From assembly GCA_001563335.1 (NCBI GenBank), contig LRSL01000013.1, forward strand, positions 1 through 64,000: a stretch of 64,000 nt of DNA, given 5' to 3'. The stretch's first letter is position 1, and every line of letters starts with the position of its first letter. The translations under genes and the position numbers were made by a program. The stretch is from Candidatus Thorarchaeota archaeon SMTZ1-45. GTDB lineage: Archaea; Asgardarchaeota; Thorarchaeia; Thorarchaeales; Thorarchaeaceae. Shown piece by piece: positions 4,346 through 13,681 of this stretch. The notes under the pieces were generated by a model that saw only the letters and a program-made list of their open reading frames with translations, ran no database searches and was not told the origin of the DNA.

Positions 4346-4978
4346 TTAATCCAAAGAGAACTCAATTCTATCTTTAGAAATTAGCTCATTGAGGGCTGGG
4401 GGATTAAGTAGTTCGACTTCAAATTTCTTCTTGGAGATTAATCTAGTTTCTTCTGGAACCAATAAGGATTCAAGAGACGCACATGAGAAAAGAGCTGTTA
4501 AATCCAGTCTTTTGAGTGGATTCTGAAGGAGGTTCAGCTTCTCTAGTTTTACACATCTTGCGAGTGGGGAAAGGTCCAAATTCATGAACCGATTACTCTC
4601 TAGGTTGAGCGAAACAAGATTCTTACATTCTAATAATGCAGAGAGATCAACTCTTAGTAGCTGATTAAAACTCAAATCCAAATGCTCCAGAAGTGAACAA
4701 TAGCCTACCATTTCTAGGTTCAAAATCTGTAAATTGTTGTGACTCAGGACTAGTTTACGAACTGCAGGACTAAATGCCAGAACAGTCAAGTCAACCGTCA
4801 TTAGTTTATTCTCGCTTAGACTGAGTTCCTCAAGAGTGTCAAGTTTGTCAAGCTCAGAGAGGTCTATTGCGATGATTTCTCTCTTTGAGAGATCTAGTAT
4901 TTTTGAATGTGAGGCGATTGGAATTGAGCTATTGGTGCCATCTGATAAGGTGACATTGACTTCTATCACTTTCAACAC
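4346..4978 (-). CDS. Leucine-rich repeat protein (24-aa LRR units)
   Basis: Repeats LEELSLSENKLMTVDLTVL / LEHLDLSFNQLLRVDLSAL / LVSLNLESNRFMNLDLSPL / LEKLNLLQNPLKRLDLTAL match LxxLxLxxNxL. Confidence 0.88.
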   Translation of the reverse strand: MLKVIEVNVTLSDGTNSSIPIASHSKILDLSKREIIAIDLSELDKLDTLEELSLSENKLMTVDLTVLAFSPAVRKLVLSHNNLQILNLEMVGYCSLLEHLDLSFNQLLRVDLSALLECKNLVSLNLESNRFMNLDLSPLARCVKLEKLNLLQNPLKRLDLTALFSCASLESLLVPEETRLISKKKFEVELLNPPALNELISKDRIEFSLD

Positions 4979-5237: not shown

Positions 5238-6542
5238 GTGGTTGTCGTAAAGATGCAAATTCCGGGAACCAACATTGACGTAAGTCTTAAGGTAAATCGT
5301 ATATACATTACAGACCCGGCTGTCACTCGAAGGCTCAAGTTTTCTGGAAAATCATTCAAAGATATCATGGAGGAAGTACAACGATTTGCCTATCTTCGGG
5401 GATTCAATGTTCCCCACCCTATTCTCAAGTTCATTTTGAAAAGAGTTGGACTTCCTGAGGTGGATGTGATACCTGGAGAGGATGAGTTAACAAAGGATGA
5501 CCTTCTTGAACTCTCTCGAGCACTGAATGCGCTTGATACACTAAAAGATGAATTCCTTTCTCCAACTGGAAAGGGCAAGCTATCCGATGATCTCAAGAGC
5601 AATGTAATAGTGTCCACCCCCGATCTTGAAGACTTGGAAACAGACACCCTTGCCCCACAGACACTTGAAGACCTGAAGACAGACACTCCAGCCCCGCAGA
5701 CAATGAGCGTCTGGGATGTTCCTCTCAGTGAGGAAGTCAAAGGTTTAGTCTACTCCTTCCATGCAGAGAATCTCCCAACAAGCACACCCACCCCACGAAC
5801 ACAATCAGCTGATGATGAAACAAAACCAGTGAAATTCATTTGGGATGAACCAGAAGTTATAGCATCCCTGGAAGATATATCAGAAGAGGCGAAATCATCA
5901 GTTGAAGATGTTTCTGACTTATTAGATCTCAAGGTCTTATTCCTTGGCGAAGAAGGCGTTGGAGTCAATAGCATAATCTTCGAATGTAATCTGAAACTCG
6001 GAAACGATTACTCTTCTCTTGACTTACCCCCGACTAGACCATTTACATTCAGCAACATAGTTGAGTACAAAGAAACGAATGTTCGTGTTGACGCATGGAC
6101 GTTCAACAAGAGTATGGAAGCAAAGGTTCCTAAGACAGAGTTCTATACAGGATCTGGAATGGTTGTGCTTGTTTACTCTGTTGCAGATAGATGGAGCTTT
6201 GATAGTCTTGATTTCTGGGTACGAGAGGTATCCAATGCTTTCTTGATTCCACCACCCATAATAATTGTCGGAAATAAGACAGATCTTCGTGATCATCCAG
6301 TCATTGAGGACGAGGATGATGAGCCAGAAATTCCTGTTTCAACCGAAGAAGCTCGTGAATACTGTGATAAAGTCGCAAAATCTTTGGGTGAAAACGGACA
6401 AGCTCATCCACTCTTCTTTATTGAAACTTCAACAATTACTGGAGTAGGAATCACTGAACTACTGAATAAGATTGTAGACTTCTGGCATGTCAATGAACGC
6501 CCAAGTATGCCAGCAACTGAACAACATGTCCCAACACATTGA
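5238..6542 (+). CDS. Ras/Rab-superfamily small GTPase domain with a long acidic N-terminal extension; G1 and G3 degenerate
   Basis: C-terminal half: LKVLFLGEEGVGVNSI (G1-like), VRVDAWT (G3 position), FYTGSGMVVLVYSVADRWSFDSLDFWVREV, IIIVGNKTDLR (G4), FFIETSTITGVGITEL (G5). Confidence 0.85.
   Translation: MVVVKMQIPGTNIDVSLKVNRIYITDPAVTRRLKFSGKSFKDIMEEVQRFAYLRGFNVPHPILKFILKRVGLPEVDVIPGEDELTKDDLLELSRALNALDTLKDEFLSPTGKGKLSDDLKSNVIVSTPDLEDLETDTLAPQTLEDLKTDTPAPQTMSVWDVPLSEEVKGLVYSFHAENLPTSTPTPRTQSADDETKPVKFIWDEPEVIASLEDISEEAKSSVEDVSDLLDLKVLFLGEEGVGVNSIIFECNLKLGNDYSSLDLPPTRPFTFSNIVEYKETNVRVDAWTFNKSMEAKVPKTEFYTGSGMVVLVYSVADRWSFDSLDFWVREVSNAFLIPPPIIIVGNKTDLRDHPVIEDEDDEPEIPVSTEEAREYCDKVAKSLGENGQAHPLFFIETSTITGVGITELLNKIVDFWHVNERPSMPATEQHVPTH
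5625..5702 (+). repeat. In-frame 39-bp imperfect tandem duplication (LEDLETDTLAPQT / LEDLKTDTPAPQT)
   Basis: cttgaagacttggaaacagacacccttgccccacagaca followed by cttgaagacctgaagacagacactccagccccgcagaca. Confidence 0.85.
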
Positions 6543-8477: not shown

Positions 8478-9245
8478 ATGCACCTAATGCACGAGCGACT
8501 TCACTCAGAACTCTATGCTTCAATTGCTACACTTGATCAATTGAAGAAATTATATGACCTTGGTGCAGTAGATATTCGTTCGTACCAACGAGAGTCGCAA
8601 GCTCTTCTACAAGATGTTCGTTCACAGCTAGAGAACATGAAGCGAATGGGTTTTGATATCAGCACGTTCGTGTCAACTGAACGCATAATCGAGGCTTTTC
8701 CTGAAGCTGCCAATCTGCTTCGACTTAGCAGTCATGCTCCAAGGCGGTCACTTCAAGGGATGACTTTGGACCAATTCTATGATTATATTGGTCTAGCTGT
8801 GCTTGATGTGGCTACAGAGCATTCATCAAAGGGACTAATGGGGTTGGCTGAACTAATAGTCGAGGTTGTAAGACGTCTTCCAGAACTTGAATCTGTGACA
8901 TATAATGATGTCATCGAGTCTGTGAACCGTGTTGCTGACAATGGCCTTATCCCAGGAATACGCACGCTTCGAGGCGGAGTCAAAGTTGTAGAGTTACGAC
9001 CCCTCGAGCTGAGACGTGACCAAGCAGATGTAATTAATCTGGCAGCATCAAAAGGATATGTTTCTGTTGAAGAAGTAATTATGCAAATGAAGTGGTCTGA
9101 GGATCATGCTCGACAAGTTTTATCCAGTTTGGTTGAGGCTGGCATGGCTGTTGCTGATATCCGCTTTTCAACAGGCGGTCGATATTACTTCCCTGGACTC
9201 AGAGCTCGCGATAGTTCTGATCCAAGAGTAACAGGTGCATACTAA
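8478..9245 (+). CDS. ESCRT-II Vps22/Vps36-like (EAP30) tandem winged-helix protein with an N-terminal Vps28-like domain
   Basis: aa ~98-242 (DQFYDYIGLAVLDV...GLMGLAEL...PLELRRDQADVINLAASKGYVSVEEVIMQMKWSEDHARQVLSSLVEAGMAVAD...YYFPGL) align by eye with the Vps22/SNF8 WH domains. aa ~1-83 (SELYASIATLDQLKKLYDLGAVDIRSYQRESQALL...ISTFV...PEAANLL) resemble the Vps28 N-terminal core. Confidence 0.82.
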   Translation: MHLMHERLHSELYASIATLDQLKKLYDLGAVDIRSYQRESQALLQDVRSQLENMKRMGFDISTFVSTERIIEAFPEAANLLRLSSHAPRRSLQGMTLDQFYDYIGLAVLDVATEHSSKGLMGLAELIVEVVRRLPELESVTYNDVIESVNRVADNGLIPGIRTLRGGVKVVELRPLELRRDQADVINLAASKGYVSVEEVIMQMKWSEDHARQVLSSLVEAGMAVADIRFSTGGRYYFPGLRARDSSDPRVTGAY

Positions 9246-9247
9246 GA

Positions 9248-9955
9248 TTATGTTGAAATAAGAATTGCTCCTTTCTTAACCAAAAGTGCTAATACAATGT
9301 GAATGTCTTTTTCTGGCAGACTCGCAAAGTCCTCTTTGACTTCCTGTATAACTATTGACTTTACATCAAGTCTAAGTTTTCCTTTCTTGAGTGCCCACTG
9401 ATACAGAATATCTGCCCAATCCTCAAGAGGTCGCCAATAGACTCTCAATTGTCGTTTTTTCTTGTCTATCCACTCAGCAACTTGCTTGTCTATTAATACT
9501 GCAGCAATCGCATTGAAGGAGTCTACCTTATTCCTCAAATCCTTGAATGGTGGCTCACCTATGAAGGTAGCAAGTGAGAGAATATGCACATTATTCCCCT
9601 CTGTCCACTCTAATAGAAAATCTGCCCATTCCTCAGCCCAAAGTAATTTATCCTCTTCTCTTGTAGGAATACCATACATCCATTCAGTTTCTTCAATATC
9701 TCCCCAGTCAGGCATAATGAAATCAAGTTCCGTCACTACAGTTTTGGTAGCTGTTTCATCAACAACCTCAATTTTTACCTCAGGTTCTTCAGTTTCAGTT
9801 GGTTCTGAAATCTCTACGACAACCTCGGGGGAATGAACCTCCTCCTCTATGATAATCTCATCAACAGAAGGAGCTGACTCGACTTTTTCTTTTTCAACAG
9901 TTGAGGTTGTTTCCTTCGTTTTGGTCTTTTCCTTTTTCCTCTCCCGCACGCCCAC
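9248..9955 (-). CDS. vps25: ESCRT-II Vps25-like protein with an acidic N-terminal extension
   Basis: WAEEWADFLLEW...AEWIDKKKRQLRVYWRPLEDWADILYQW is the Vps25 signature (AEW.D......YWR.PEEWA.LIY.W); directly downstream of vps4 (3-bp gap). Confidence 0.85.
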   Translation of the reverse strand: MGVRERKKEKTKTKETTSTVEKEKVESAPSVDEIIIEEEVHSPEVVVEISEPTETEEPEVKIEVVDETATKTVVTELDFIMPDWGDIEETEWMYGIPTREEDKLLWAEEWADFLLEWTEGNNVHILSLATFIGEPPFKDLRNKVDSFNAIAAVLIDKQVAEWIDKKKRQLRVYWRPLEDWADILYQWALKKGKLRLDVKSIVIQEVKEDFASLPEKDIHIVLALLVKKGAILIST

Positions 9956-9958
9956 TCT

Positions 9959-11176
9959 TTAGGAACCCTCCGCCCAGTCAATGTATCTCTTGACATCCTC
10001 TGGGGGAGTTGCTGGGCGGATGTTTTCTATAGCATGCAGGAAATCATCCCGTGACACGGGGCGGATGTCCAATATCTCCTGCTCATCATCCATTCTACCA
10101 GTACGCTGCAAATCCCTAATTGGTTCCATGGCTGCCTCACGACAGACAACACTAATGTCTCTTCCACTATATCCCTCTGTAAGATCTGCCAGCTCGTCAT
10201 ATTCAACAGTTGGTGAAACCTCAACATCTTCCATATGAATCTCGAAAATCTTTGCTCGTGCCTCTCTATCTGGGAGTGGAACATGTATCTTCTTCTCAAA
10301 CCTGGAACGTAATGCGAAATCCAATTCCCATGGGAGATTCGTTGCTCCGATGAGTGTTATGCGATCTTCCTCATCGCTGGCAAGACCTTGAAGCTCTGTG
10401 AGTAACTGTGTCTTAAGACGTCTCTCGCCTCCCACATCATCACCTGACCTAGAAACACCAATTGAATCTAGCTCATCGATGAAGATTATCGCTGGTTGAT
10501 TTTTTCTTGCTAAATCAAATAAGCTCATCACAAGCCTCTCCGATTCACCCAGCCACTTGCTTACAATATTCGCAGCTGAAACATTGAAGAATGTTGCATT
10601 AACCTCCGATGCTACAGCTTTAGCAACAAGTGTTTTTCCACAACCTGCAGGTCCATAGAACAAAATCCCTCGCCATGGTTGTCTAGCTTTCCCCTTGAAG
10701 AGCTCAGGATGTTTCATGGGCGCAATTATTGCATCATCAATTGCTTGTTTTGCATCTGCAAGACCTGCAACCTCCGACATCTTCATTCTTGGACGTTCTG
10801 ATATGATGGTGTCAGAGATCATTTCTCTGAGTCTCTTCTCCTCCTCATCTAGCTCTGCTACTGCCTTTGAAGTTTCTTGGATTGGTACTTGCTCTGCAGG
10901 ACCAACATCAACCTTTGGAGGAACCATAAGACCATCAACTGGTCCATGGGATTTTTTCTTTATTCCAGAAAGATACCTTACCCTATCTACACATTCTTGA
11001 GCTCGGTCAAGATAGTGCTTTTTGACAGAAGGCAATGCCGCAGAGTTTGATAACTTGATCAGAATCTTACTTGCCTTGAGATACTCCTGACAAGCGTCTT
11101 TCTTCATACCTCTATTATCAAGTTCTATTGCTTTGGCAAGCAAAGCCTTTAGTCCATGGTCAACTCGATCCGCCAT
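9959..11176 (-). CDS. vps4: Vps4 AAA+ ATPase with N-terminal MIT domain
   Basis: MIT (KAIELD...ACQEYLKA...YLDRAQ); EVAGLADAKQAI; PWRGILFYGPAGCGKT; SKWLGESERLV; IIFIDELD; ERRLKTQLL; GATNLPWELD. Confidence 0.95.
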   Translation of the reverse strand: MADRVDHGLKALLAKAIELDNRGMKKDACQEYLKASKILIKLSNSAALPSVKKHYLDRAQECVDRVRYLSGIKKKSHGPVDGLMVPPKVDVGPAEQVPIQETSKAVAELDEEEKRLREMISDTIISERPRMKMSEVAGLADAKQAIDDAIIAPMKHPELFKGKARQPWRGILFYGPAGCGKTLVAKAVASEVNATFFNVSAANIVSKWLGESERLVMSLFDLARKNQPAIIFIDELDSIGVSRSGDDVGGERRLKTQLLTELQGLASDEEDRITLIGATNLPWELDFALRSRFEKKIHVPLPDREARAKIFEIHMEDVEVSPTVEYDELADLTEGYSGRDISVVCREAAMEPIRDLQRTGRMDDEQEILDIRPVSRDDFLHAIENIRPATPPEDVKRYIDWAEGS

Positions 11177-11318: not shown

Positions 11319-11936
11319 GTGAGATATTTGGGTTCAATTAGAAAGGCATTCTCCTGGGGTAGAAAGAAACCGGACATTGGTGAAATATCCAGCCGCCTCA
11401 GGATATTGTCAAAACAATTAGCGCGCCAAAGGAACAAGTTGGAGAAGGAAGAACGTGATGCAAAATCTCGTGCTGTCCGAGCAAGAAAGGCTAGTCAGAT
11501 GGAAGCATATCGAACATATGCTACTGAGATGGTGCGATTTCGAAGATATGCTCTTTCCGTTGATAAGTCACGGCTTCAGATTCTAAAGATTCTAGCTCAT
11601 CTAAATCGTGCTCAAACTTCTGCAAAGACACAGATCGCCCTTCAAGAGGTTGCAAAGATACTTGGAATGCTCGGAGATGGCACGGATGCTTCGAAAGTTG
11701 TTGCTAATGTTGATGAGATTGCTCGACGCCTTGAGGAGTTCGAGATTGAAGCTAGCATCTCTGACGAAGCACTTGATTCAACTATGGAAGTGACGTCTGA
11801 AGACATGACCTTCGCCTTTCAAGAAATTGATGCTGAGGCTGGACTCGCTGATGCATCTACAGCTGCGAAACCTATAGGTGAAGCTGAGTCTTTGGAGGAA
11901 GACATCAAAGCATTAGAACGTGAACTTGGTGTATAA
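11319..11936 (+). CDS. ESCRT-III (Snf7 family, Vps2/24/46-like) subunit
   Basis: Basic N-terminal hairpin (LRILSKQLARQRNKLEKEE...AYRTYATEMVRFRR), acidic C-terminus with MIM1-like end ESLEEDIKALERELGV; divergent from vps4. Confidence 0.88.
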   Translation: MRYLGSIRKAFSWGRKKPDIGEISSRLRILSKQLARQRNKLEKEERDAKSRAVRARKASQMEAYRTYATEMVRFRRYALSVDKSRLQILKILAHLNRAQTSAKTQIALQEVAKILGMLGDGTDASKVVANVDEIARRLEEFEIEASISDEALDSTMEVTSEDMTFAFQEIDAEAGLADASTAAKPIGEAESLEEDIKALERELGV

Positions 11937-11938
11937 TA

Positions 11939-13516
11939 CTACCAGAGCTTGTCACGAGTATCTCTTGTGACGCGTTCAATCTCGCGTCTGTTATGATACG
12001 AGTCTCTCATAAGGTCTCTATATCTTCTGATGAAATCTTCAGTAACAAGCTGCCCACTTCGCAACATATGGACTGTATCCCGAATTGCATCTTCAATGGA
12101 TGCAGCGTCTCTTCGCAATGAATGTAATCTAGGACTCACATCATAGGTCGGATGCGGATTTTGTGTCTGATCGTATCGTTTCATGACCCTGTCTAATTCA
12201 TCACGAAATGATTCAGGTTTCCTGTAATAGCTATCATAAGGACTTCTTCGAACAGGTGTTGACCCCCAACCCCCAACCTGCTGTTTGAAACCAGGTCTCA
12301 TCAGAAACCGTTCTTCCTCATATTGTACTCTATCATTAGTTGAAAGTAATGAATATACCATCCCCTCAATCTTGAGTCTTACATCGCTAGTGCCAACATC
12401 TGTCTGTTCTATTTTCCTAACCCTTTGCATGTCTGTCTGTATATACTTCTCAAACTTTCTAGCAATCTCAATATAATCCGGTAGAACTCTCTTTGTTTGG
12501 TCTGAACAGGTCGCTTTGATTTCACCCTGTTTTAGTTTCAGAACTACACGTTTTCTGAGTCGTCCATCTTCTTCAATGGACTTTAGGTAAATCAATGGAA
12601 AATCAAAGATTGTTTCCATCTTCTTTCTTACTCGTCCAGTTTCTGCAATGAAAAGAAGTCTCTTGTTAGTGATAAAGAGTGTTCCCAATGCTTTATCATT
12701 CTTGAGAAAGTCACTCCCCGCGATCTTGATTTCAGGAAGTGCACAGACTGGAAGCTCTCCGACAGACAACTGGCCATGCTCATAGAATGTTGCGAATTGT
12801 CCTTTATAGTAGTCGAGTCCATCAAGTTGTCTTCTAATGTCCTTTAATGTGTTCTTGAGTGGTTCAAGTGCTTCATCAACATTTTGTCTATAATAGATAC
12901 CCATCTCAGTGATTCTGTTAGTTATACCCTCAATGAATGGGAATTGCGTTGGATTCCATTGAGTATAGTCTATGAAATTCTTAGTTTCCGCAGCCATCCT
13001 CTTTGCAATGATTTCAGCTTGGCTAGAGATTCTATTCTTAATAGCTGGAAGTTCGTTCTGAATAGCTTCAATCTTTTCCTCTATCCATCTGTAATGGAGA
13101 AAGTTAGCCATCCTAAGTGACACGAGTAATCTTTTCGCATTCGCTAACTTATTGGTGAACTCTCTGAGCTTTGTATGACCATATTGAATGGTCATTATTG
13201 CATGTCTCATATCTAAAGCTAGCGACCTTCTTCGATCTTCTAGAAGTACGACTCTAGTAGAGTGGCATCTAGGACAGATATCAACAGTCTTTCTTCCCTT
13301 ACTCAGATTTTCCGACTCACATTGTGGACACTCTTCGAATTTTTCCCCTGGGACAGGAGTGCCAAGGGTGTGATGACAATCACTACAGACGGTGTATTCA
13401 CTTGACCTCGATTCAAGGCATTCAGAACACAGGGCCGCTCCACAATCCTCACACATGTGAGTCGCTCTGTTTGACTGGCAAGATTTACAGTGTCCAGATG
13501 AAGGATCTTTTATCAA
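11939..13516 (-). CDS. Zn-finger + coiled-coil + GRAM/PH-like + C-terminal Vps23/Vps37-like steadiness-box protein (putative ESCRT-I-related)
   Basis: CxxC pairs and a B-box-like CKSC..HMCEDC..LCSEC; ALGTLFITNKRLLFI...DFPLIYLKSIE (GRAM/GLUE-like); C-terminal IEDAIRDTVHMLRSGQLVTEDFIRRYRDLMRDSYHNRREIE. TTG start with an upstream GGAGGT. Confidence 0.65.
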   Translation of the reverse strand: MIKDPSSGHCKSCQSNRATHMCEDCGAALCSECLESRSSEYTVCSDCHHTLGTPVPGEKFEECPQCESENLSKGRKTVDICPRCHSTRVVLLEDRRRSLALDMRHAIMTIQYGHTKLREFTNKLANAKRLLVSLRMANFLHYRWIEEKIEAIQNELPAIKNRISSQAEIIAKRMAAETKNFIDYTQWNPTQFPFIEGITNRITEMGIYYRQNVDEALEPLKNTLKDIRRQLDGLDYYKGQFATFYEHGQLSVGELPVCALPEIKIAGSDFLKNDKALGTLFITNKRLLFIAETGRVRKKMETIFDFPLIYLKSIEEDGRLRKRVVLKLKQGEIKATCSDQTKRVLPDYIEIARKFEKYIQTDMQRVRKIEQTDVGTSDVRLKIEGMVYSLLSTNDRVQYEEERFLMRPGFKQQVGGWGSTPVRRSPYDSYYRKPESFRDELDRVMKRYDQTQNPHPTYDVSPRLHSLRRDAASIEDAIRDTVHMLRSGQLVTEDFIRRYRDLMRDSYHNRREIERVTRDTRDKLW

Positions 13517-13681
13517 GTGAGAACCTCCGGTAGTCTATTTACATCGAGGAGTTATCCAAGAATAACCCGTGTATTATTCTGGAAACATTGACGTATAGTT
13601 TACTGCGACTCAAAAGAATGTCCAAGCCATATCAGTTATATCCAGTTTCATAGGCTGGGGTTCAATTCAAAGGGGATATTC

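Follow-up and report, generated by a model that had tools for sequence, protein, structure and literature searches.

How are membranes and cargo recognised upstream of ESCRT-II in archaea that are without a UEV-containing Vps23? A hallmark of membrane biology in eukaryotes, ESCRT has its closest prokaryotic version in Asgard archaea. Among these, recognition of membrane or cargo upstream of ESCRT-II is least clear in the Thorarchaeota-like and Lokiarchaeota-like types, which have no UEV-Vps23; the Thorarchaeota are also without recognisable ubiquitin. In the locus described here, a protein with zinc, PH and steadiness-box domains is encoded next to ESCRT genes. Its family appears to be an obvious candidate for this step.

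The gene, its neighbours and its family

The window analysed is a stretch of 64,000 nucleotides, the first part of contig LRSL01000013.1 of Candidatus Thorarchaeota archaeon SMTZ1-45. The gene lies in the Thorarchaeotal ESCRT-II/III/Vps4 cluster, with the following features:

8478/8487-9245, forward strand: Vps22/EAP30 gene (Pfam EAP30, E 1.3e-13)
9248..9955, reverse strand: Vps25 (ESCRT-II) gene (Pfam ESCRT-II, E 5.8e-11)
9959..11176, reverse strand: Vps4, consisting of MIT, AAA and Vps4_C (Pfam AAA 3.1e-39, Vps4_C 5.5e-5, MIT 1.3e-4)
11319..11936, forward strand: ESCRT-III (Snf7 family) gene (Pfam Snf7, E 1.1e-8)
11939..13516, reverse strand: Znr_CC_PH_SB protein, whole coding sequence (525 residues, TTG start, stop at 11939-11941; from the ORF list and translation)
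13523..13528, reverse strand: GGAGGT, a Shine-Dalgarno-like motif six bases 5' of the TTG (read from the sequence)

The ESCRT-III and Znr_CC_PH_SB genes are convergent, and their stop codons adjoin. The TTG start codon occupies 13516-13514 and the GGAGGT motif 13528-13523; the presence of this motif before the TTG backs the long gene model, in which the first CxxC pair is retained. In public records the start is commonly placed at M21 or further downstream (entries of 505, 471 and 415-419 residues), with loss of the first CxxC pair or more. These records label the protein 'hypothetical protein'. The gene occurs in one copy in its own genome.

The architecture is already known as Znr_CC_PH_SB, and the 525-residue protein is its Thorarchaeotal member. 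The family is asCOG cog.011556 (Makarova et al., 2024, mBio, PMC10936438), and its members are confined to the phylum to which our genome belongs. Table S2 of that paper lists a Thorarchaeotal locus in the order AsnS, Vps22, Vps25, Vps4, ESCRT-III, cog.011556, TldD, TldE, ArgS, which is matched by the gene order in our window, and in which the cog.011556 gene between ESCRT-III and TldD encodes 517 residues. The family is therefore known already, with a Thorarchaeotal gene tabulated at this syntenic position. The published domain order (Zn ribbons, coiled coil, PH, steadiness box) is the same as the one found here, and nothing structural differs. Section 6 of PMC10936438 regards the family as probably belonging to ESCRT-I and expects its PH domain to associate with the membrane, in agreement with the first-pass annotation, which had proposed an ESCRT-I-like subunit with zinc and PH modules as membrane or cargo sensors. 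Table S3 of the same paper, which gives HHpred evidence, has no row for Znr_CC_PH_SB.

A full-text search for the family name returned Makarova et al. (2024) alone, with no experiment on any member, and the supplements of PMC9192718 hold no Thorarchaeota or steadiness-box text. Beyond the published description, our analysis offers a candidate partner (a hairpin of Vps22), specific contact residues, and an EAP30 fusion variant that points the same way. Within section 6, part of Table S2, Table S3 and abstract passages of PMC10936438, the hairpin fused to Vps22 is not named as a partner of Znr_CC_PH_SB, and there is no mention of a variant ending in EAP30.

The same domain layout turns up again in 166 close homologues and in 94 sequences that each represent a cluster at 50% identity; across the phylum, 299 of 400 genomes contain the family with this layout. 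The architecture is therefore not a matter of chance, and the open reading frame and domain description originally given for it are borne out, apart from a miscount of CxxC pairs.

Domain architecture

Pfam and PDB searches with the single Znr_CC_PH_SB sequence gave only sub-threshold matches. The AlphaFold2 model of the whole protein has a pLDDT of 75.9 and a pTM of 0.51, so that it describes the single domains and not their mutual arrangement. The domains, all on the reverse strand, are as follows:

13376..13489, reverse strand: B-box/RING/FYVE-like two-zinc module, residues 10-47 (CxxC pairs C10/13, C22/25, C30/33 and C44/47; all eight cysteines invariant, n=40)
13265..13330, reverse strand: zinc ribbon, residues 63-84 (C63/C66 and C81/C84, invariant cysteines)
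12776..13243, reverse strand: helical ('coiled-coil') region, residues 92-247 (AlphaFold2 secondary structure)
12404..12757, reverse strand: PH-fold domain of GRAM/GLUE type, residues 254-371 (AlphaFold2 model, VIA-align, Foldseek)
12134..12337, reverse strand: variable, mostly disordered linker, residues 394-461 (pLDDT and variable alignment columns)
11942..12133, reverse strand: Vps23-type steadiness-box helical hairpin, residues 462-525 (family profile, domain model, Foldseek)

Five CxxC pairs had been counted at the N-terminus; there are in fact six (C10/C13, C22/C25, C30/C33, C44/C47, C63/C66 and C81/C84). All 12 of these cysteines are invariant in a family-wide alignment of 40 sequences, and they are sufficient for three zinc sites. 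Pfam zf-B_box (PF00643) matches 15 of the 31 Thorarchaeotal members at E<=0.1 (best E 7.9e-6), with no match at this threshold in the 525-residue protein itself, and the RING domain of RNF4 is matched by the whole-length family profile at E 1.6e-4. The zinc ribbon gives a weak match to the ribbon of RNA polymerase subunit M (7oqy_Y, E 0.081), and Pfam DZR matches 12 of the 31 members.

The coiled coil originally placed at residues 95-240 is modelled as three long helices (92-134, 139-177 and 189-233), which together with two short ones make up the helical region. This region contains the conserved motif LRMANFLH, and R135 is invariant in the family-wide alignment, with H141 and E146 nearly invariant.

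The PH domain consists of seven strands (256-336) followed by a C-terminal helix (339-371). The first-pass annotation had suggested a PH fold here from the sequence GTLFITNKRLLF, read as a GRAM/GLUE motif. The middle domain does model as a PH fold, with GRAM-type PH domains and GLUE as its top matches, and the motif sits within the modelled fold; throughout the family its G278 never varies, and T283 and F289 hardly do. In VIA-align, the domain (residues ~243-359) superposes on MTMR2 (1lw3_A) with Z 13.0 and an rmsd of 2.7 Å over 107 residues, and on Lam6 (5yqr_A) with Z 12.7; the EAP45 GLUE domain (2dx5_A) follows at Z 10.3, below the GRAM-type PH domains. Foldseek matches to the domain range from E 4e-5 to 1e-3, and include the ESCRT-II GLUE domain 2hth_B (E 9.8e-4, TMt 0.59), while the whole-length family profile matches the yeast Vps36 GLUE domain 2cay_A at E 0.015. 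Pfam GRAM (PF02893) is found at E<=0.1 in six of the 31 Thorarchaeotal members (best 0.017) and reaches the cut-off in one distant relative (23.6 bits). Pfam Vps36_ESCRT-II stays below its cut-off, with matches in two of the 31 members and a best relative at 24.0 against 24.1 bits.

A cluster of basic residues in the PH domain (R286, R297, K298, K322, R323 and R353) is conserved, with K or R in 28-38 of 40 sequences at each column, and we infer that this cluster would help the domain to hold a complex on the membrane. Foldseek also returned many DH-PH proteins as matches to the whole model, but with rmsd values of 18-27 Å; a DH-PH relationship was rejected, and these matches are taken as likeness in the PH domain only, plus unrelated helices.

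In the linker, first described as low-complexity, residues 394-435 and 446-459 have pLDDT <50. Inside the linker is a short conserved helix (437-451), in which L441 is nearly invariant in Thorarchaeota. Relatives from other lineages are much longer overall, at up to 1171 residues.

The C-terminal hairpin

The C-terminus is predicted to form one helix at 462-487 and another at 492-524; block means of pLDDT across residues 461-510 are 83-94, and the C-terminal part modelled alone has a pLDDT of 90.4. It thus folds as a helical hairpin of the steadiness-box kind, as had been anticipated, and it matches the ESCRT-I headpiece. A Foldseek search of the hairpin model against 350,542 chains placed ESCRT-I headpiece chains in all ten top positions, with TMq 0.73-0.84, rmsd 0.8-2.9 Å and identity of about 22-28%. 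The C-terminal family profile, searched against the PDB, matched Vps23 at E 8.5e-8 (2f66_A), 1.2e-7 and 3.6e-7 and TSG101 (6vme_B) at 2.6e-4, and the whole-length family profile matched Vps23 at E 4.1e-5.

Significance against the PDB is reached only by profiles that include distant family members, to which the 525-residue protein is linked by phmmer (relatives of 460-1171 residues, E down to 1e-63). A Thorarchaeota-only C-terminal profile matches Vps23 weakly (E 0.07-0.23), and none of the Thorarchaeota-only profiles (whole-length, C-terminal, or Vps22 N-terminal) is significant against the PDB alone. Pfam Vps23_core scores 14.2 bits on the 525-residue protein against a cut-off of 26.8, and among 30 distant relatives it matches 11 at the C-terminus, the best at 26.3 bits. 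We conclude that the hairpin is homologous to the steadiness box of Vps23/TSG101. The first reading had compared it with both Vps23 and the Mod(r) domain of Vps37: the likeness to Vps23 stands, and that to Mod(r) is weak (VPS37B, 6vme_C, at E 0.061; Pfam Mod_r in two of 31 members).

Conservation of the locus and distribution of the family

The Znr_CC_PH_SB gene is followed immediately, at a distance of 0.01-0.2 kb, by an ESCRT-III match in 68 of 71 Thorarchaeotal loci. In the same 71 loci, housekeeping neighbours (TldD in 66, ArgRS in 59, AspRS in 54) show roughly the same degree of conservation as the ESCRT genes, and so Thorarchaeotal synteny alone says little on function. On a complete Thorarchaeotal chromosome (locus L036), ESCRT-III adjoins, but there is no Vps4, Vps25 or Vps22 gene within 8 kb. 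Among 20 loci sampled from other families of the phylum, ESCRT-III is present within 8 kb in eight; the remaining 12 have no ESCRT gene within this distance, including all six loci from the largest family, f22.

The zinc fingers and PH domain had been proposed to replace the UEV. This fits the Thorarchaeota-like family f1, where Znr_CC_PH_SB occurs in 82 of 85 genomes and UEV in none of the 85, and the Lokiarchaeota-like family f22, with 127 of 135 genomes and again no UEV (0/135). It does not extend to the whole phylum: about ten families (f5, f6, f10, f13, f16, f17, f18, f19, f28 and f30) carry both, which rules out strict complementarity with UEV-Vps23. The genome that contains our gene is 88% complete. 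Its best UEV match is below cut-off (E 0.07), it contains no ubiquitin match at E<=0.1, and no full Vps28 was found in it, the sole weak match being the N-terminus of Vps22. The 525-residue protein itself has no Pfam match to UEV.

A small sister subfamily was identified, comprising three clusters (P0152, P0216 and P0217, with 14 member sequences), in which an EAP30 domain of the Vps22/36 type replaces the hairpin. Its Znr-CC-PH module aligns with residues 3-391 of Znr_CC_PH_SB (hhalign 100%, E 3.6e-42). The fusion of this module to EAP30 points to ESCRT-II.

A predicted partner in Vps22

The Vps22 gene of the cluster encodes a second hairpin:

8487..8741, forward strand: N-terminal Vps28-N-like hairpin of the Vps22/EAP30 protein, predicted as the partner (Pfam VPS28 at positions 2-70, E 0.0011)

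The true start of this gene is probably the ATG at 8487, at whose Met the starts of its homologues align. The top PDB matches of a Thorarchaeotal Vps22 N-terminal profile are Vps28 N-termini, with weak E values of 0.042-0.079, and Table S3 of PMC10936438 lists a Thorarchaeotal Vps22 with an HHpred match of 99% to the N-terminal steadiness box of VPS28. By profile search, the genome contains a single Vps23-like and a single Vps28-N-like hairpin. A possible second steadiness box, in a 201-residue protein on contig C118 (E 0.016), carries no Vps23, Vps28 or steadiness-box signal and resembles a generic coiled coil.

A complex was modelled between the Vps22 N-terminus (85 residues) and the hairpin (71 residues). 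It gave an ipSAE of 0.81, against 0.00 for the best of three controls. Of 157 solved complexes 116 attain the mark used for such scores, as do two of 215 mismatched pairs; these counts apply approximately here, since the alignments used were our own. Between runs the contacts coincide fully (100%), with a partner pLDDT of >=83. The confident contacts include three of the five invariant columns of the hairpin (R486, F495 and Y499) and six of the 14 invariant columns of the Vps22 N-terminus (A11, S12, A14, T15, Q18 and L40). The complex model may owe its pass to the predictor having learnt the solved Vps23-Vps28 cores (2f66, 2f6m, 2caz, 2p22 and 6vme), and what it shows is likeness, not binding. 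On this modelling, the Znr_CC_PH_SB protein probably plugs into ESCRT-II through the product of the neighbouring Vps22 gene.

Proposed role and alternatives

We consider it likely that the Thorarchaeotal Znr_CC_PH_SB orthologue is a modular upstream ESCRT adaptor, whose hairpin docks on the neighbouring Vps22. The C-terminal hairpin would pack on the Vps28-N-like hairpin of Vps22 to form a headpiece-like helical bundle, tying the adaptor directly to ESCRT-II; recruitment of Vps25, ESCRT-III and Vps4 by ESCRT-II would follow. By analogy, the PH domain and its basic cluster would keep the adaptor complex at the membrane, and the zinc module and helical region may bind cargo or some other partner, or may serve in oligomerisation. 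Since the genome shows no UEV-Vps23, full Vps28 or ubiquitin, Znr_CC_PH_SB would be the main ubiquitin-independent entry point to ESCRT. The description of the protein as a stalk/headpiece subunit is accepted in part: the hairpin is of the headpiece type, and the stalk is not supported, because the helices are N-terminal to the PH domain and a disordered linker precedes the hairpin.

A different partner for the hairpin seems rather unlikely to us. Instead of docking on Vps22, the hairpin would associate with a second copy of itself, or with some other protein of the steadiness-box or Vps28-like kind such as a BAR-Vps28 fusion, in a separate membrane-shaping complex. Eukaryotic ESCRT-I headpieces hold three hairpins, which makes a third partner plausible. 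Steadiness-box hairpins are also promiscuous building blocks, as seen in the many Asgard proteins with steadiness boxes or Vps28-C in PMC10936438; in Table S2 of that paper, cog.002483 ('BAR fused to Vps28') is entered for a Thorarchaeotal genome, and its positional orthologue in the present genome (L112:5465-6181) lies between two Rab-like GTPases. Pfam and PDB sequence searches of this candidate, however, returned no Vps28, BAR or steadiness-box signal, so that its identity as a BAR-Vps28 fusion is unconfirmed. The genome searches found no second hairpin of either kind, their one weak extra match being the unrelated coiled-coil protein, and both the score of the Vps22 pairing over its controls and the EAP30 fusion subfamily favour ESCRT-II.

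The hairpin might instead make the protein a cell-division anchor like CdvA, in which the PH domain replaces the membrane-binding part of CdvA, and the hairpin polymerises as the CdvA coiled coil does and recruits ESCRT-III directly, without ESCRT-II. The hairpin does superpose on the CdvA filament of S. islandicus (9s9g_A; VIA-align Z 10.4, rmsd 1.5 Å, 67 residues), but helical hairpins score high Z nonspecifically, and for helical folds a Z below about 13 may reflect no more than a common arrangement. Two of 30 distant relatives have a weak Pfam CdvA match (E 0.006-0.014), Table S3 of PMC10936438 puts the coiled coil of CdvA and the steadiness box into one profile class, and the most constant neighbour of the gene is ESCRT-III. 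Sequence profiles nevertheless rank Vps23/TSG101 first (E 1e-7 to 1e-4), with no CdvA chain among all 35 matches of the C-terminal profile or the best 60 of 136 matches of the whole-length profile, and we regard such an anchor as distinctly improbable.

A generic zinc-finger/PH protein with no relation to ESCRT, placed in the cluster by inherited gene order, would suit the equally conserved housekeeping neighbours in Thorarchaeotal loci, the sub-cut-off single-sequence Pfam matches and the 'hypothetical protein' label, but is very hard to reconcile with the significant C-terminal profile homology to Vps23, a fold search topped exclusively by ESCRT-I chains, the EAP30 fusion subfamily, and the linkage to ESCRT-III in eight of 20 loci of other families.

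If the protein is indeed an adaptor docking on Vps22, the ESCRT-I/II junction would be simpler than the eukaryotic one, with a bearing on the origin of the PH plus EAP30 layout of Vps36. A much bolder extension, which we offer as speculation and think doubtful, is that Znr_CC_PH_SB is the ancestral ubiquitin-independent entry to Asgard ESCRT; that in Thorarchaeota-like and Lokiarchaeota-like types it alone couples membrane or cargo to ESCRT-II, by a handshake of its Vps23-like hairpin with the Vps28-like hairpin of Vps22; and that the rare EAP30 variants still show today the sort of fusion from which eukaryotic Vps36 arose.

Comparison with known systems

The protein shares with Vps23/TSG101 the C-terminal steadiness-box hairpin and its modelled packing on a Vps28-N-like hairpin. 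It differs in having no UEV, the N-terminal part being instead a zinc module, helices and a PH domain. Moreover, the Vps23 hairpin is joined to a continuous stalk helix, whereas that of Znr_CC_PH_SB is preceded by the short helix 437-451 and the disordered linker.

With Vps36/EAP45 the common feature is a GLUE-like PH fold together with zinc fingers, as in yeast Vps36, and the sister subfamily also has the PH plus EAP30 layout. In contrast to Vps36, Pfam finds no EAP30 in the 525-residue protein, the zinc fingers are N-terminal and not inserted into the PH domain, and the best structural matches of the PH domain are GRAM-type (MTMR2, Lam6), not GLUE.

The resemblance to Vps37/Mod(r) is confined to the steadiness-box hairpin, with the weak VPS37B and Mod_r matches given above; it is clearly below that to Vps23, and the Mod(r) stalk region is absent. 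Finally, the hairpin superposes on the filament of CdvA, from Thermoproteota cell division, and both proteins would link membrane to ESCRT, but by a different membrane-binding part, which in Znr_CC_PH_SB is accompanied by zinc as well as PH domains.

Domain architecture and gene model

The Znr_CC_PH_SB protein (SB, steadiness box) is encoded next to ESCRT genes, as follows:

8478–9245, + strand: Vps22/EAP30 gene, N-terminus weakly Vps28-like
9248–9955, − strand: Vps25
9959–11176, − strand: Vps4 (MIT, AAA, Vps4_C)
11319–11936, + strand: ESCRT-III/Snf7, convergent with the Znr_CC_PH_SB gene
11939–13516, − strand: Znr_CC_PH_SB ORF, 525 residues, TTG start

GGAGGT can be read in the sequence six bases 5′ of the TTG, and the gene occurs once in its genome. 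Close homologues that carry a name are from Thorarchaeota, and their product is nearly always "hypothetical protein"; automatic annotation has given some public homologues unrelated names ("transposase-like protein" or "ribosomal protein S17E"). Public gene models are often shortened at the N-terminus (505, 471 or 415–419 residues) and so lose zinc ligands. For the Vps22 gene the probable start is the ATG at 8487 rather than 8478, because homologues align from that methionine.

The structure was predicted using AlphaFold2 with an alignment of 31 Thorarchaeotal homologues (mean pLDDT 75.9, pTM 0.51), and consists of:

Residues 10–91: zinc region, short β elements
Residues 92–134, 139–177, 189–233: three long helices
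Residues 256–336 and 339–371: PH region, seven strands and a long C-terminal helix
Residues 394–435 and 446–459: linker, low confidence
Residues 462–487 and 492–524: C-terminal helical hairpin, confident

The inventory of domains in the first-pass annotation is borne out and the layout is confirmed, except that five CxxC pairs had been counted where there are six (C10/13, C22/25, C30/33, C44/47, C63/66 and C81/84); none of the 12 cysteines varies among 40 aligned sequences spanning the whole family. The first-pass proposal of an ESCRT-I stalk/headpiece subunit is not supported in its stalk part: the helices are not positioned like a stalk, because the PH domain and then a disordered linker intervene and keep them apart from the hairpin. 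For the partner or cargo of the zinc module and helical region, the oligomeric state of the protein and the cellular process it serves, we have to infer.

The Pfam "ANCHR-like B-box" recurs on residues 10–47 (13376–13489, − strand) in 6 of 31 Thorarchaeotal members, and one distant relative reaches 26.6 bits (cut-off 27). In animals, ANCHR/ZFYVE19 binds VPS4 and belongs to the abscission checkpoint; what the two have in common may be no more than the type of zinc finger. The otherwise variable linker of Thorarchaeota contains a conserved short helix at residues 437–451 (12166–12210, − strand), with the pattern FRxxLER and a nearly invariant L441, which could be a short docking motif.

The PH domain

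Foldseek, run on the whole model, matched PH-containing chains, among them those of Lam6 (PH-like domain, E 4e-5), MTMR2 (GRAM-PH domain, rmsd 3.6 Å over 117 columns) and human EAP45 (GLUE domain, TMt 0.59). There were also many DH-PH matches, at rmsd 18–27 Å, so that they are informative for the PH part only. An all-against-representatives alignment, independent of Foldseek, ranked GRAM-type PH domains first (MTMR2, Z 13.0, rmsd 2.7 Å, 107 residues; Lam6, Z 12.7), with EAP45 GLUE next (Z 10.3). The middle domain therefore models as the PH fold that had been proposed for it. The Pfam bPH_3, GRAM and Vps36 GLUE profiles match recurrently, mostly below threshold, although 8 of 30 distant relatives pass the bPH_3 cut-off, and the family profile matches yeast Vps36 GLUE at E 0.015. 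Lys or Arg occupies six PH-domain positions in 28–38 of 40 family members, a sequence pattern consistent with, but no proof of, contact with an acidic lipid surface. The domain may bind membranes; membrane association is also expected in the published account of the family (PMC10936438).

The C-terminal hairpin

The protein alone scores 14.2 bits with Pfam Vps23_core (cut-off 26.8), and a profile of Thorarchaeotal C-termini matches solved Vps23 at E 0.07–0.23. The C-termini of distant relatives align across the same hairpin without gaps, and the combined profile (29 sequences) matches core chains of yeast Vps23 (E 8.5e-8, 1.2e-7 and 3.6e-7), human TSG101 (2.6e-4) and VPS37B (0.061). Vps23 ranks first with the whole-length family profile too (E 4.1e-5). 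A separate model of residues 455–525 has pLDDT 90.4, and when 350,542 chains were searched with it by Foldseek, the best 10 matches all came from entries of the ESCRT-I core or headpiece (2f6m, 2f66, 2caz, 2p22 and 6vme; TMq 0.73–0.84, rmsd 0.8–2.9 Å, identity 22–28%), with E-values that are weak (0.02–0.14), as is to be expected at a length of 60 residues. Hence neither outcome set beforehand as counting against the first-pass reading, a middle domain without a PH fold or a C-terminus without a steadiness-box-like hairpin, came about.

Residues 459–525 (11942–12133, − strand) also superpose on the cytoplasmic domain of Promethearchaeum ribophorin I (8whn_A, Z 10.3).

Relation to the published family

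Interpretation as an ESCRT-I-like subunit is supported, and is the reading given by Makarova et al. (2024, mBio; PMC10936438), who describe the family (asCOG cog.011556) as Asgard-specific, probably ancestral and a likely ESCRT-I component. In their Table S2, one Thorarchaeotal locus runs AsnS, Vps22 (cog.002769), Vps25, Vps4, ESCRT-III, cog.011556 (517 residues), TldD, TldE and ArgS, which is the gene order of the window; in the older arCOG-based sheet of this table, the gene at this position is unmarked for ESCRT in two Thorarchaeota assemblies. Their HHpred evidence table (Table S3) has no Znr_CC_PH_SB row; it assigns residues 1–70 of one Thorarchaeotal Vps22 to the VPS28 N-terminal SB (99% probability), and CdvA coiled coil plus SB to one profile class. 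A full-text search of the literature for the family name returned Makarova et al. alone; we found no experimental work on the family and, from 2022 on, no paper joining Asgard, ESCRT-I, pleckstrin homology and Vps28. The architecture and family are therefore already known, and our additions are modest: a predicted partner with mutable residues, a fusion variant that points to ESCRT-II, and distribution counts.

Vps22 as the proposed partner

In Vps22, the first ~80 residues form a hairpin resembling Vps28-N and contain the invariant motif ASIATLDQ, so that ESCRT-I-type and ESCRT-II-type parts are fused in one chain. We propose that the C-terminal hairpin of Znr_CC_PH_SB would pack onto it. Prediction of a complex between the two fragments (26-row alignments each, from the same loci) scored 0.81 (0.80–0.81 over three runs), against 0.00 for the best of three controls. 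In calibration, 116 of 157 solved complexes reached the mark, as did 2 of 215 mismatched pairs; these counts are only approximate here because our own alignments were used. Contacts agree 100% among the three runs, with partner pLDDT of at least 83; those that are confident involve R486, F495 and Y499, three of the five hairpin columns without variation, and 6 of the 14 such columns of the Vps22 N-terminus. Vps23–Vps28 cores have already been solved, so the pass may reflect memory of these structures; as a model, it shows likeness to Vps23–Vps28, not binding.

The hairpin might instead pair with itself or with another SB or Vps28-like protein; profile searches, however, found only one Vps23-like and one Vps28-N-like hairpin in the genome. 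The protein might also act like CdvA, since the hairpin superposes on the Saccharolobus islandicus CdvA filament (9s9g_A, Z 10.4, rmsd 1.5 Å), but high scores are nonspecific for helical hairpins, and Vps23 is favoured by the sequence profiles.

Elsewhere in the genome (locus L112, 5465–6181, + strand; G000:C92) is a 238-residue protein with helical termini and a Pro/Thr-rich linker, whose gene is close to PheS/PheT and flanked on both sides by genes for Rab-like GTPases. Table S2 of PMC10936438 lists "BAR fused to Vps28" (cog.002483) at this position in another Thorarchaeotal genome, an identity that Pfam and PDB sequence searches did not support here.

Also bearing on Vps22 as partner is a small subfamily outside the window, P0152, P0216 and P0217 (three 90%-identity clusters, 601–610 residues, 14 member sequences), in which the zinc–helix–PH module ends in an EAP30 (Vps22/36-type) C-terminus and has no hairpin. 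If the hairpin serves to reach ESCRT-II, a covalent Vps22/36-type core in its place would be expected. The module aligns with the family profile (hhalign, 100%, E 3.6e-42, residues 3–391), and this evidence is independent of any structural model. The EAP30 ending is absent from the other 65 relatives scanned, and the available parts of PMC10936438 do not mention it.

Gene neighborhood

An ESCRT-III match lies directly 3′ of the gene in 68 of 71 Thorarchaeotal loci, the other three stopping at a contig edge; 62 loci contain Vps4, 59 Vps25 and 59 Vps22. Housekeeping neighbors are kept about as often (TldD 66, ArgRS 59, AspRS 54), which makes this block synteny of related genomes, of little weight as evidence. 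Of 20 loci sampled from other families of the phylum, 8 have ESCRT-III within 8 kb and 2 have a true Vps4 and Vps25; the six from the Loki-like family f22 have none of these genes within 8 kb. Linkage to ESCRT genes thus reaches past Thorarchaeota without being universal.

On one complete Thorarchaeotal chromosome (L036), ESCRT-III adjoins the gene but matches to Vps4, Vps25 and Vps22 are lacking within 8 kb, which sets it apart from the other long Thorarchaeotal loci. Just upstream of the cluster in the window are a leucine-rich-repeat protein (4346–4978, − strand) and, adjoining it, a 434-residue protein whose C-terminal part is a Ras/Roc small-GTPase domain (5238–6542, + strand).

Distribution and missing ESCRT components

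The first-pass annotation had asked how widely the architecture occurs. Among 400 genomes of the phylum, 299 have a match to the protein (E ≤ 1e-5), including 72 of 90 of high quality, and nearly always in single copy. Matches occur in 82 of 85 genomes of f1, the family to which the window belongs, and in 127 of 135 of f22, the largest, but are all but missing from families f8 (1/31), f11 (0/22), f26 (0/7) and f29 (0/4). UEV matches are distributed in a partly opposite way, at 0/85 in f1, 0/135 in f22, 0/19 in f14 and 0/14 in f21, against 22/31 in f8 and 13/22 in f11. The suggestion that this protein replaces UEV therefore stands for Thor- and Loki-type lineages, which have Znr_CC_PH_SB alone; some 10 families carry both, so it is not a simple replacement of UEV-Vps23.

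The genome of the window (completeness 88%) has no UEV match above cut-off, no Vps28 beyond the weak match on Vps22, and no ubiquitin at E ≤ 0.1, the last in agreement with Hatano et al. (2022; PMC9192718), who report Thorarchaeota as seemingly lacking ubiquitin.

Comparison with known ESCRT systems

By both profile and fold search, the hairpin is of the Vps23/TSG101 steadiness-box type, and its match to Vps37 is clearly weaker (E 0.061 against 8.5e-8). The PH domain resembles the GLUE domain of the ESCRT-II subunit EAP45, yet by Z score is closer to the GRAM-type domains of MTMR2 and Lam6. The subfamily ending in EAP30 has a layout like that of Vps36, a PH domain together with an EAP30 domain.
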